Sequence record: MZ868638.1
From: Escherichia phage vB_EcoM-pEK20
Length of the DNA: 64,000 nt
Strand: one strand, 5' to 3'
Shown here piece by piece: positions 12,024 through 60,477 of this stretch. The notes beneath the pieces are model-generated. The model was not told where the DNA came from. It did no database searches and saw only the letters and a list, made by a program, of their open reading frames with translations. The first letter of the stretch is position 1. Each line of letters starts with the position of its first letter. A program made the translations under genes and the position numbers.

Positions 12024-12386
12024 ATGAAAGCATATCAAATTCTTGAAGGTGAACATAAAGGCACTATTTATTTTGAAGACGGTACTCAAGCCCGGATTAT
12101 TGTCTCTAAGACTTTTAAAGAAGACACTATTGTAGACCCGGAAATTTTCTACGGTTTGAATGCTCGTGAAATTGAAATTGAACATCAACCTAAAGTTAAA
12201 ATTGAAGGTGGTCAACACCTGAACGTTAACGTTCTGCGTCGCGAAACTCTGGAAGATGCAGTTAAGCATCCAGAAAAATATCCGCAGCTGACCATCCGTG
12301 TATCCGGTTATGCAGTTCGCTTTAACTCTCTGACTCCGGAACAGCAGCGCGACGTTATCGCTCGTACCTTTACCGAGAGTCTATAA
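12024..12386 (+). CDS. grcA: autonomous glycyl-radical cofactor GrcA/YfiD-like protein
   Basis: C-terminal ~60 aa ...[59 protein letters not shown] matches E. coli GrcA as I recall it; 3' half GC-rich. Confidence 0.8.
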
Positions 12387-17571: not shown

Positions 17572-18105
17572 ATGAAAACTGTAATTGAAACAACCGAGTT
17601 GTTTGGTGATTTATGTATCGAAAAACGTGGTTATGTGTATGTTCTGACACAAGAAGATGATGCTGCTACTATTCTTCCTATGGAACTGGACAAGATTTTG
17701 AAACTCAATCCGTCTGGACGTCGTCGAGAGGTAATTAACATTGGTAAAGACCTCCAAGTTCGTTTTTATCCTGGTCTTTACAATGTGGCTAATATCGAAA
17801 CTGAAGACGAATGTTTTTCTATTAATAATTGGAAAACATTCGTCACTAAGGTGAAAGAATTAATGGAATCTGAAACAGCCAAAAAGGCCAAACTTCAATG
17901 GGCTAAATGCCGTAATGCTTTTATTACAAATCAGGACCGCCCTGACTATACAACAGTCCTAGGCGTTAATCCTTCTTATGAAGATGGTGATGTCGTAGTT
18001 ATTCGTCAAATTGATGACCTTCGTCAACATATCGTTACATTAGACAAAGATGAAGCAGTTGCTCTTAAAGCTTATCTTGATTCTATTATCCCGACTTTGA
18101 AATAA
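17572..18105 (+). CDS. hypothetical protein
   Basis: ATG at M5 of listed ORF. Confidence 0.5.
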   Translation: MKTVIETTELFGDLCIEKRGYVYVLTQEDDAATILPMELDKILKLNPSGRRREVINIGKDLQVRFYPGLYNVANIETEDECFSINNWKTFVTKVKELMESETAKKAKLQWAKCRNAFITNQDRPDYTTVLGVNPSYEDGDVVVIRQIDDLRQHIVTLDKDEAVALKAYLDSIIPTLK

Positions 18106-57860: not shown

Positions 57861-58328
57861 ATGGGTATTATTAACACTGCAATAGATTCTGTTTACGCAT
57901 ATAAGTTTATTCGACTAATGCAAAAACCTTTTACTGAATGGAAAGCATACGAAGCCAAAATCATCGATGAACGTGGAAGTGTTCTTAAACGTCCTTCCAC
58001 TCCTGAAGAGAAAGCGGCTTATACACCTTTTCATGCTTCAGTTCGTTCAATGAAGCGAATGATGAGCACTGTTCCAGGTCTTAATGGAATGGCCTCAATG
58101 ATGTCTGCCTGGAGTGCTGTAGCTTCACGCTATAACATTACGGAAGAACAGCAGAAAGAAATATTTAAAGAACTCCCTTTATTTGAGGATATGGTTGCTG
58201 GTGATTCAGGTGGCAGCCCTCAAGCTATTGCATCAGGAACAACTACAGGTGCAGTAGTAAATAAAGGTCCAGAACAAATTCCTTCCAAGAAAAGAAAGCG
58301 AATTAAAGTAAATATTAATAAGTTGTGA
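57861..58328 (+). CDS. hypothetical protein
   Basis: ATG at M10 of listed ORF, SD ggaggt. Confidence 0.45.
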   Translation: MGIINTAIDSVYAYKFIRLMQKPFTEWKAYEAKIIDERGSVLKRPSTPEEKAAYTPFHASVRSMKRMMSTVPGLNGMASMMSAWSAVASRYNITEEQQKEIFKELPLFEDMVAGDSGGSPQAIASGTTTGAVVNKGPEQIPSKKRKRIKVNINKL

Positions 58329-58367
58329 TAAGATGGCCTTATTAATTTAAGGCCTCTGGAGAATACT

Positions 58368-59390
58368 ATGGCTGAATGGATAGATAATGAATTTGCTTAT
58401 CGCGCGTTTTCTCACCTACCTCGTTTTAGACAAATCAATAATTCAAGCACATTTAAATTAACATTTCGATGTCCAGTTTGTGGCGACTCCCAGACAGATG
58501 CAATGAAAGCTCGCGGATGGTATTATGGCGGTACTCCTGGTAATGTACATTGTTATAATTGCCAATACCACAATACAATTTCCGGATACTTAAAAGAGTA
58601 TGATGAAGAGCTTTATCGCGAATATCTAATGGAAGTTCGTAAAGAAAAAGCTAGAATGGAACCAAAGATTGAAAAGGTTCCTGAACATAAACCAGAACCG
58701 GAGAAAAAGACTATAAATTCTTTGCCGTCTTGTTCTCGTCTGGACAAGCTGCCCGAAGAGCATCCTATTGTGAAATATGTTAAGTCTCGGTGTATTCCTA
58801 AAGAATCGTGGAACAGATTATGGTTCACATTAGAATGGCCTAAATTGGTCAACAAGATTCAACCTGGTACGTATAAGAAAGAGATTCCCGAACCACGTTT
58901 AGTGATTCCTATTTTTAATAAAGATGGGAAGGCCGAGTCATTCCAAGGACGTGCACTTCGTAAAGATGCTCCTCAGAAATATATCACTATTAAAGCGTTT
59001 GAGTCTGCAACAAAAATTTATGGTGTTGAACGTGTTAAGGAAGGGGACGTCTGGGTAATGGAAGGCCCTATTGATAGTTTATTCATACCCAATGCAATCG
59101 CTATTACAGGCGGCTCAATAGATTTAGATGTGGTACCATTTAAAGAACGTCGGGTATGGGTAATGGATAATGAACCTAGGCATCCGGATACTATAGCTCG
59201 CATGAAGCGATTAGTTGATGCAGGCGAACGTGTCATGTTCTGGGACCGAGCTCCGTGGAGATCAAAGGATGTGAATGATATGGTAATGAAAGAAAATGCA
59301 ACACCACAAGAAATTTTAGAATATATGAAACAGAATATTTCAAGTGGGTTGCATGCTAAAATGAGATTATCTCGTTATTCGAAGATTTAA
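58368..59390 (+). CDS. 61: DNA primase gp61
   Basis: N-terminal zinc ribbon CPVCGDS...CYNC, TOPRIM-like motifs; matches T4 gp61. Confidence 0.95.
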   Translation: MAEWIDNEFAYRAFSHLPRFRQINNSSTFKLTFRCPVCGDSQTDAMKARGWYYGGTPGNVHCYNCQYHNTISGYLKEYDEELYREYLMEVRKEKARMEPKIEKVPEHKPEPEKKTINSLPSCSRLDKLPEEHPIVKYVKSRCIPKESWNRLWFTLEWPKLVNKIQPGTYKKEIPEPRLVIPIFNKDGKAESFQGRALRKDAPQKYITIKAFESATKIYGVERVKEGDVWVMEGPIDSLFIPNAIAITGGSIDLDVVPFKERRVWVMDNEPRHPDTIARMKRLVDAGERVMFWDRAPWRSKDVNDMVMKENATPQEILEYMKQNISSGLHAKMRLSRYSKI

Positions 59391-59584
59391 ACAAGCCCTA
59401 TAATAGCAAAGGCCAAATCAACTACAGTATCCAATGGAACAGAAGGAACCATAACACCATGGGCAACTAACAATGGTGCAATCCCGAAGTTCCATGAAAT
59501 AATGCCACCTACAACTATTGCAGCGATAGCAGTTTTCTTTTTATTGCCTTTAATAGCGTTGATTAACGATGGAAGTTTAAACAT
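59387..59584 (-). CDS. small hydrophobic membrane protein (minus strand)
   Basis: only minus-strand ORF in an intergenic gap; strong SD aaggag 5 nt upstream of ATG (complement of 59590-59595). Confidence 0.45.
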   Translation of the reverse strand: MFKLPSLINAIKGNKKKTAIAAIVVGGIISWNFGIAPLLVAHGVMVPSVPLDTVVDLAFAIIGLV

Positions 59585-59614
59585 AATATCTCCTTAGTTA
59601 CCTATTATTTATTA

Positions 59615-59639
59615 CGCTTTATAAAATTAATGTTAGAAT
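59615..59639 (+). promoter_or_regulatory. middle promoter (MotA box) upstream of gene 56
   Basis: cGCTTTA 59615-59621, 12-nt spacer, tagaat 59634-59639. Confidence 0.5.
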
Positions 59640-59673
59640 TAACTTCTCTTATACTGAATTGAAAGGAAAAATA

Positions 59674-60195
59674 ATGGCACACTTTAACGAATGTTCACAA
59701 CTTATTTCTGGTGTTGATAAAGCAGAAGAAGCTTATTTTAATGCTCTGATTCACGAAGATAAAGACCCTCTGCAGGTAATGCTTGATATGCAGAAATCTT
59801 TACAGGTTCGTCTGGCAAATGACAAGCCTGAACATAACAAACATCCTGATGAATTGGCCACTGCTGGTGATGTTGTTGATTGGCTGCGTAATCAGAAAGA
59901 TTATATTGATGATGAATTCCGTGAACTGTTGACTTCACTTGGTGGTATGAGCAATGGTGAAAAAGCCGCTAGCTCTGTATGGAAGCCGTGGAAAGCACAA
60001 CATGCTGAATATCGAAATCGTCGTATCGATGAACTGTCTCCTGAAGACCAGCTTGAAATTAAATTTGAAATGATTGATATTCTGCATTTCGTTCTAAATA
60101 TGTTCCAAGGTCTAGGACTTTCTGCTGAAGAAATCTTCAAACTGTATTACCTGAAAAACCAACACAACTTTGAACGCCAGGATAATGGTTACTAA
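59674..60195 (+). CDS. 56: dCTPase/dUTPase gp56 (MazG-like)
   Basis: MAHFNEC...DPLQVMLDMQ...ELATAGDVVDWLR...IDDEFRELLTSLGG matches T4 gp56. Confidence 0.95.
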   Translation: MAHFNECSQLISGVDKAEEAYFNALIHEDKDPLQVMLDMQKSLQVRLANDKPEHNKHPDELATAGDVVDWLRNQKDYIDDEFRELLTSLGGMSNGEKAASSVWKPWKAQHAEYRNRRIDELSPEDQLEIKFEMIDILHFVLNMFQGLGLSAEEIFKLYYLKNQHNFERQDNGY

Positions 60196-60201
60196 TTAAG
60201 T

Positions 60202-60209
60202 TATAAATA
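60202..60209 (+). promoter_or_regulatory. late promoter core TATAAATA upstream of soc
   Basis: exact TATAAATA 31 nt upstream of soc ATG. Confidence 0.6.
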
Positions 60210-60240
60210 CACCTGTAATTAAACAACAAAGGAGTTAATT

Positions 60241-60477
60241 ATGGGTGGTTACGTTAATATCAAAACCTTTACGCATCCTGCAGGTGAAGGCAAAGAAGTT
60301 AAAGGTATGGAAGTTTCTGTACCGTTTGAGATTTATTCAAACGAACATCGGATTGCGGATTCTCATTACCAAATCTTTCCGTCAGAAAAGGCAGCTTATT
60401 CTGATGTCGTTTCTGATGCAGCAACTTGGAAAACTAAGAACGCTGCAATGTTTACCCCTACACCAGTAAGTGGTTAA
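60241..60477 (+). CDS. soc: small outer capsid protein Soc
   Basis: GYVNIKTF...HYQIFPSEKAAYS matches T4 Soc; downstream of 56 as in T4. Confidence 0.85.
   Translation: MGGYVNIKTFTHPAGEGKEVKGMEVSVPFEIYSNEHRIADSHYQIFPSEKAAYSDVVSDAATWKTKNAAMFTPTPVSG

Follow-up and report, generated by a model that had tools for sequence, protein, structure and literature searches.

The question raised by this locus is whether a short open reading frame, lying on the opposite strand between the primase and dCTPase genes of Escherichia phage vB_EcoM-pEK20, is a true gene and, if so, when it is expressed and what its product might do. The DNA analysed, referred to here as the window, is a stretch of 64,000 nucleotides from record MZ868638.1, whose plus strand is the strand of early and middle transcription. 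Gene 61, encoding the primase (phrog_47), occupies 58368..59390 on this strand, and gene 56, encoding the dCTPase (phrog_173), starts at 59674 on the same strand; both are identified by the ORF listing together with family matches. An earlier note, made from the sequence alone, had claimed a 65-codon minus-strand frame between them, and the ORF listing places it, with an ATG start, at 59387..59584. Its product is a 65-aa membrane microprotein (MFKLPSLINAIKGNKKKTAIAAIVVGGIISWNFGIAPLLVAHGVMVPSVPLDTVVDLAFAIIGLV), the ortholog of RB69ORF029w and a member of phrog_2024.

The immediate surroundings of this frame are compact. The minus strand around the start reads ...GTAATAAATAATAGGTAACTAAGGAGATATTATG, in which the ATG (59584-59582) is preceded by a 5-nt spacer, ATATT, and by the Shine-Dalgarno sequence AAGGAG (59590..59595, minus strand), just as had been described. 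Further upstream, at 59606..59613 on the minus strand, lies a box, AATAAATA, that resembles the T4 late promoter consensus TATAAATA. The convergent overlap with the end of gene 61 is also borne out: 4 nt (59387..59390) are common to both genes, the TAA of gene 61 being 59388-59390 on the plus strand and that of the microprotein frame the reverse complement of 59387-59389, and the two stop codons interlock. Over positions 58900-60200 the window is 99.1% identical to Escherichia phage PNJ-9 and 98-98.6% identical to phages ST0, F2, APCEc01, and HX01, all members of the genus Mosigvirus, the RB69/JS09-like T-even phages. The claim that this is the sole minus-strand gene is matched by PNJ-9, the closest annotated relative, in which all CDSs but this one, over the equivalent of the whole window, are annotated on the plus strand.

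The gene itself is already known. RB69 and hundreds of other genomes carry it under the label of hypothetical protein, and it forms family 2024 of the PHROGs collection. In RB69 it was annotated in 2003 as RB69ORF029w (NP_861719.1; 16061..16258), whose product shares 97% identity with the window protein; the two genes are equally long, lie at the same place and in the same direction, and each shares 4 nt with gene 61. Nolan et al. (2006) predicted a transmembrane segment at residues 21-41 with no signal peptide, counted the gene among the RB69 "novel ORFs", meaning those for which T4 has no ortholog, and did not include a late promoter for it in their list. In contrast to that account, an intact T4 homolog and a conserved late-type box are now found. 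Database entries name the family "hypothetical protein" everywhere, with the exception of a single UniRef entry, from phage OE5505, that reads "Holin". A search of the full-text literature, by locus and family name and through T4 work on ribosome profiling and proteogenomics, returned no paper that discusses the gene. What is added here is the recognition of a conserved late-gene cassette, its distribution throughout the Tevenvirinae, and its omission from the T4 reference record.

The T4 homolog lies at 17738..17938 on the plus strand of NC_000866 (L002 2239-2439) and encodes 66 amino acids with 55% identity to the window protein. Its stop codon overlaps that of gene 61 convergently and it has a ribosome-binding site (RBS), here AAGGAGG, both as in the window; a GATAAATA box is located 21 nt before the ATG. 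The arrangement differs from that of the window in that dam lies between the microprotein cassette and gene 56. The homolog falls in the 309-bp gap between dam and gene 61, where NC_000866 carries no feature, and it is called in an automated re-annotation of T4, OZ209023. As the reference record omits the homolog, T4 work that is keyed to the reference gene list would not have examined it, and Nolan et al. (2006) accordingly treated the RB69 gene as having no counterpart in T4.

The window protein matches the phrog_2024 HMM along its entire length (E=2.6e-27, positions 1-65 of 65), as do all 17 of the diverse family members that were compared (best E=1.5e-31). With tblastn, a homolog is found in 692 phage records. 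Identity to the window protein is highest in Mosigvirus, at 90-100%; it is about 55% in Tequatrovirus, to which T4 belongs, and falls to about 45% in the Gaprivervirus and Yersinia phages. At 80% identity or above there are about 153 records for the microprotein, compared with 154 for gp61 at the Mosigvirus level. A first, word-indexed protein search recovered close relatives only and a profile search reached further, returning just 8 clusters from 1.84 billion representative proteins. Four of these 8 (P0076-P0079; 60-68 aa) are weak matches, with E values of 4e-5 to 4.5e-4. They are encoded on metagenomic T-even contigs, between the dCTPase and primase genes and in the orientation opposite to both, and it is this common genomic position that validates their remote homology.

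For other genera, the region at the 3' end of gene 61 was retrieved using gp61 as an anchor. A convergent small frame with the same core motif was found in Klebsiella phage K65, in Proteus and Salmonella Gelderlandvirus, and in a Kosakonia Kanagawavirus. The gene is convergent with 61 and upstream of 56 in ST0, RB69, T4, CJ20, and P8, and likewise in four metagenomic lineages, Klebsiella phage K65, Gelderlandvirus, and Kanagawavirus. Conservation in relatives, a check named beforehand in the earlier note, is therefore found as the same position and orientation across the Tevenvirinae, with protein identity falling as low as 22-32%. The interlocked stops are shared by T4, RB69, two further lineages (L021 and L022), Proteus phage ABTNLPp2, and Kosakonia phage 305, and another gene separates the frame from gene 61 in lineage L023 and in Yersinia phage P8. 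The gene is present in each of the six Tevenvirinae groups that were sampled (Tequatrovirus, Mosigvirus, Gaprivervirus, Gelderlandvirus, Kanagawavirus, and the Klebsiella phage), and also in metagenomic T-even phages. Six T4 relatives outside the subfamily, comprising five other Straboviridae genera and Yersinia phage JC221, were also sampled; no opposite-strand ORF is annotated at the site in Tulanevirus, Lazarusvirus, JC221, Slopekvirus, Krischvirus, or Pseudotevenvirus, and the last four named have genes 61 and 56 as immediate neighbors. On the basis of its presence in every Tevenvirinae group sampled and at the site in none of the six distant relatives, the gene is characteristic of the subfamily Tevenvirinae as far as the sampled genera represent it.

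The pattern of substitution is that of a coding sequence. When 16 distinct sequences are aligned by codon, 45, 19, and 56 columns vary at codon positions 1, 2, and 3, respectively. Nei-Gojobori dN/dS values within clades are 0.09-0.35, and between clades the synonymous sites are saturated with dN at only 0.4-0.5. Among the six possible frames, the microprotein frame has the lowest pN/pS, 0.47 as against 0.60-1.79 in the others. No other gene overlaps the frame, so the pattern reflects selection on the protein itself, and the ORF is under purifying selection and protein-coding. Together with the 692 phage records that carry a homolog, this makes it far more than a chance ORF. The overall reading of the earlier note, that a genuine small membrane protein gene lies between genes 61 and 56, is thus upheld by purifying selection, the phrog_2024 match, synteny, the RBS, and the predicted transmembrane helix. 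Truncated or frameshifted alleles do occur in some Tequatrovirus genomes (P0068, P0071-P0074; phage a48, L006 2483-2608), for which reason the gene may be dispensable in the laboratory. In phage a48 the frameshift comes from the loss of one nucleotide in a run of A, AATAAGAAAC, and this loss, like some of the other broken alleles, may be a sequencing error.

The signals for expression are conserved along with the protein. In all homologous loci examined, the ATG is preceded at 4-7 nt by GGAG or GGAGG. Upstream of this comes ATAAATA, at 16-36 nt from the start codon; the one exception among the lineages is Gelderlandvirus, where the corresponding ATTAAATA is two positions off the consensus. The base that precedes the heptamer varies: Mosigvirus and some Tequatrovirus have AATAAATA, T4 has GATAAATA, Gaprivervirus has CATAAATA, and the metagenomic lineages and Klebsiella phage K65 have G or C before ATAAATA. 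The canonical TATAAATA occurs in Kosakonia phage 305 only, and on account of this phage a proposed rule that the -13 base is never T was dropped. The box is kept while the sequence on both sides of it is unalignable between clades. On its minus strand the 64-kb window has just two copies of ATAAATA, one of them that before the microprotein frame, and the chance of finding it in a 31-nt zone is 0.003 from its window-wide frequency or 0.04 from local base composition. The other copy, at 12065-12071, is inside plus-strand coding sequence and is followed by no convincing ORF.

These signals can be compared with what is known of T4 transcription. The T4 late promoter is TATAAATA at -13 to -6 with no -35 element, and A at -13 is its commonest variant, present at 9 of 50 sites (PMC2988020). 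The same source records that T4 early and middle transcripts are all of one polarity, whereas late transcripts may be of either, and that both T4 strands are transcribed at several sites (PMC2988020). In RB69-type phages the T at -13 is poorly conserved (PMC1524935). The arrangement seen here resembles that of the T4 late genes, which depend on gp55, gp33, and gp45, in having a lone -10-type box without a -35 element, in either orientation and near the start codon. It differs in that the window box has A rather than T at -13, other lineages having G or C, and in that the start position proposed here is deduced from the sequence. No sigma-70-like promoter was found upstream of the frame on the minus strand. 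Taken together, the conserved ATAAATA box, the published T4 rules, and the lack of a sigma-70-like promoter lead us to infer that the gene is transcribed late in a gp55-dependent manner. Transcription would begin near 59598-59601, giving a predicted leader of about 15 nt. Most lineages lack the T at -13 and have A, G, or C instead, so the promoter may be a weak one. The divergent Gelderlandvirus box and the absence of this site from the RB69 late promoters listed by Nolan et al. (2006) also count against the assignment.

Two other promoter-like elements are found close by on the plus strand. The soc gene is preceded by a canonical late box, TATAAATA, at 60202-60209, 31 nt before its start codon at 60241; its RB69 counterpart is "Pl:15279", a late promoter in the predictions of Nolan et al. 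(2006). Upstream of gene 56 there is a MotA-box-like sequence, ACGCTTTA (59614-59621), followed after 12 nt by TAGAAT (59634-59639). This pair resembles a T4 middle promoter. The apparent middle promoter (59614-59639, plus strand) stands back-to-back with the late-type box of the microprotein gene (59613-59606, minus strand).

The downstream end of the transcription unit varies between lineages. Where gene 61 is not overlapped, a stable hairpin directly follows the ORF stop (CJ20, L018, L023, and K65), accompanied by a T run in CJ20 and L023; the post-ORF hairpins are located at L005 2750-2795, L018 5593-5615, L023 6204-6230, and L026 2805-2830. Such hairpins may act as bidirectional terminators between convergent genes. 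A scan of 58300-60300 in the window detected no terminator, and none was detected in T4; because of this, the late transcript may run on, antisense, into gene 61. An Rfam scan of 58900-60100 gave nothing meaningful. Within the 3' end of gene 61, the minus-strand RNA from 59296-59354 contains an inverted repeat, GCAACCCAC...GUGGUGUUGC, followed by UUUUCUUUC, with a folding z-score of -2.2; it was considered as a candidate terminator for the late transcript. At the corresponding place AACCCCTG...CAGGGGTT is found in T4, Gaprivervirus, Kosakonia phage 305, and two metagenomic lineages. In a covariation check over 15 lineages, 70% of cells were paired, compared with 63% in shuffles, and the repeat may simply reflect conserved ATP...GL codons.

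The protein is small and strongly hydrophobic. The hydrophobicity that had been claimed for it extends from about residue 18 to the C-terminus, the best 19-residue window being 22-40 with a mean Kyte-Doolittle value of 1.93; across 17 members of the family the best such window ranges from 1.8 to 2.6. AlphaFold2, run with a 20-sequence alignment, gives a mean pLDDT of 82 and predicts helices at 3-11, 15-41, and 51-64. Every one of the 17 members has 4-7 K or R residues before the membrane helix, and the net charge of the segment that follows lies between -2 and +1. The window protein has no K or R beyond residue 17, its C-terminal segment has a net charge of -2, and it ends ...DLAFAIIGLV. One consequence of the absence of K and R after residue 17 is that trypsin-based proteomics would rarely detect the protein. 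By prediction there is a single hydrophobic helix, at least 19 residues long and positively charged on its N-terminal side, as in a bitopic protein of N-in/C-out topology, and the difference in charge before and after the helix fits this orientation. We infer from these models an inner-membrane protein with a single transmembrane helix, its N-terminus inside and its C-terminus outside.

Conservation within the protein is concentrated between W31 and P47, which corresponds to the outer half of the membrane helix and the loop that follows. Across 17 sequences, down to 22% identity, W31, P37, and G43 are invariant and N32 and P47 nearly so. A conserved helix face, of the kind associated with oligomerization, was sought by means of the conservation moment and was not significant (p=0.7). 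Two further types of membrane segment were considered and judged unlikely. A signal peptide cleaved by SPase I, at an A-x-G before residue 44, fits poorly with a hydrophobic stretch of about 24 residues and an N-terminal extension of 17 residues, and is also disfavored by the negative SignalP result reported for RB69 (Nolan et al. 2006). A SAR-type releasable helix is unlikely since the content of Gly, Ala, Ser, and Thr is not consistently high across lineages.

The explanation that best accounts for these features, and one in which we place considerable confidence, is that the locus is a monocistronic late T-even gene for an inner-membrane microprotein of 60-74 residues. The gene would lie on the strand that T4 early and middle transcription never uses, and would be transcribed only late, by the gp55/gp33/gp45-modified RNA polymerase acting at the (N)ATAAATA box. 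The transcript would carry a leader of some 15 nt with a strong ribosome-binding site, and in lineages where gene 61 is not abutted it would end at the terminator hairpin directly after the ORF. In the protein, a short N-terminal helix would end in a cluster of K and R residues kept in the cytoplasm, to be followed by one transmembrane helix at approximately residues 18-41. The conserved core, W-N-(F/Y)-x3-P-x5-G-x3-P, would form the outer half of this helix and the loop, and the short hydrophobic C-terminal helix would either lie on the periplasmic side or dip back into the membrane.

Two other explanations bear on whether the protein is the selected product of the locus at all. That the frame is a chance ORF, or a decaying relic in an open intergenic gap, might be suggested by its shortness, by the omission of the homolog from the T4 reference annotation, and by the frameshifted alleles; yet it is intact across lineages whose synonymous sites are saturated and has a dN/dS well below 1, its W, P, and G residues are invariant down to 22% identity, and its start codon, RBS, promoter box, and position are all conserved, which together make this reading extremely improbable. 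The late promoter could alternatively be the selected feature, driving an antisense RNA that covers the 3' end of gene 61 and shuts primase off late, with the ORF merely incidental. Such an idea draws on the fact that in the window (scan of 58300-60300), T4, and several lineages the ORF abuts gene 61 without a detected terminator, and on the transcription of both T4 strands at several sites (PMC2988020). It is very unlikely all the same, given that an antisense RNA needs neither purifying selection at the amino acid level nor a conserved RBS, that the hairpins right after the ORF in CJ20, L018, L023, and K65 would block antisense read-through, and that the ORF of L023 and that of Yersinia phage P8 are not next to gene 61 at all, a further gene lying in between. 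A secondary antisense effect on gene 61 may nonetheless operate in some lineages.

Other explanations accept the membrane protein and differ as to its timing or its action. Small phage membrane proteins often block the entry of a second phage, and as imm and sp (spackle) are encoded a few kb upstream in the same region, the protein might be an early superinfection-exclusion or immunity protein like Imm, expressed from a host-type promoter. The hhalign probabilities are only 0.15% against the Imm of the window and 0.3% against its RI homolog, the minus strand shows no sigma-70-like promoter upstream of the frame, and T4 early and middle transcription is all of the opposite polarity (PMC2988020), leaving this a highly improbable account. 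A lysis effector of the holin or pinholin type, that is, a small late membrane protein that oligomerizes into lethal membrane lesions, would agree with a product that is small, hydrophobic, and probably late, with the "Holin" name of the phage OE5505 entry, and with a very weak match (E=0.1) of one of the 17 members to GTA_holin_3TM. Against this, neither Pfam nor NCBIfam gives a consistent holin match and the window protein itself is unmatched; holins typically carry a charged cytoplasmic C-terminal tail, whereas the C-terminus here is hydrophobic and without one; the endolysin (lysozyme) gene is some 51 kb away, at about 7.6-8.1 kb in the window, and the neighbors are a primase and a dCTPase rather than a lysis cassette; T-even phages already encode a holin, T; and the remaining database names are all "hypothetical protein". 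Holin membership was accordingly rejected on three counts, namely family match, C-terminal tail, and genomic context, and we regard the idea as quite unlikely. In size, hydrophobicity, and probable timing the protein is like the class II holins and pinholins, such as S21 68, but unlike them it has no charged tail, no second full-length transmembrane helix, and no lysis-cassette context.

If the preferred reading of a late inner-membrane microprotein is taken, its function can be approached only by analogy. Searches of Pfam, NCBIfam, PDB sequences, and, with Foldseek, viral models gave no informative family or structural lead, and the locus offers no operon partner or neighboring gene that hints at function. 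AcrZ, MgrB, and KdpF exemplify small regulators of the bacterial inner membrane that work by binding larger membrane proteins. Like the window protein, regulators of this type are single-pass microproteins with conserved residues in or next to the membrane; the likeness is one of analogy only, as no sequence relationship was found. By way of a guess, which we hold tentatively, the conserved core, at the outer leaflet and periplasmic face of the inner membrane, may bind another membrane protein, or itself, late in infection and so tune envelope- or lysis-related events, acting neither as an enzyme nor as a pore-forming holin. That the protein has, through its W-N...P...G...P core, an unrecognized part in how T-even phages time or inhibit lysis or control the envelope is a more doubtful proposal. 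Should the late assignment be correct, T4 studies built on the reference gene list would have missed a late Tevenvirinae microprotein. If the protein affects lysis timing or envelope integrity, it would be a new player in one of the best-studied phage systems; otherwise, it would be one more dispensable accessory microprotein.

The flanks of the cassette are a hotspot for insertion (L003 600-1379; L004 2786-3553; L029 3327-3977). In T4, dam is inserted between the microprotein ORF and gene 56, in Yersinia phage P8 a homing endonuclease gene lies between the ORF and gene 61, and in Kosakonia phage 305 another homing endonuclease gene is found between the ORF and gene 56. Despite these flanking insertions, the unit of promoter, RBS, and ORF is intact in all three phages.
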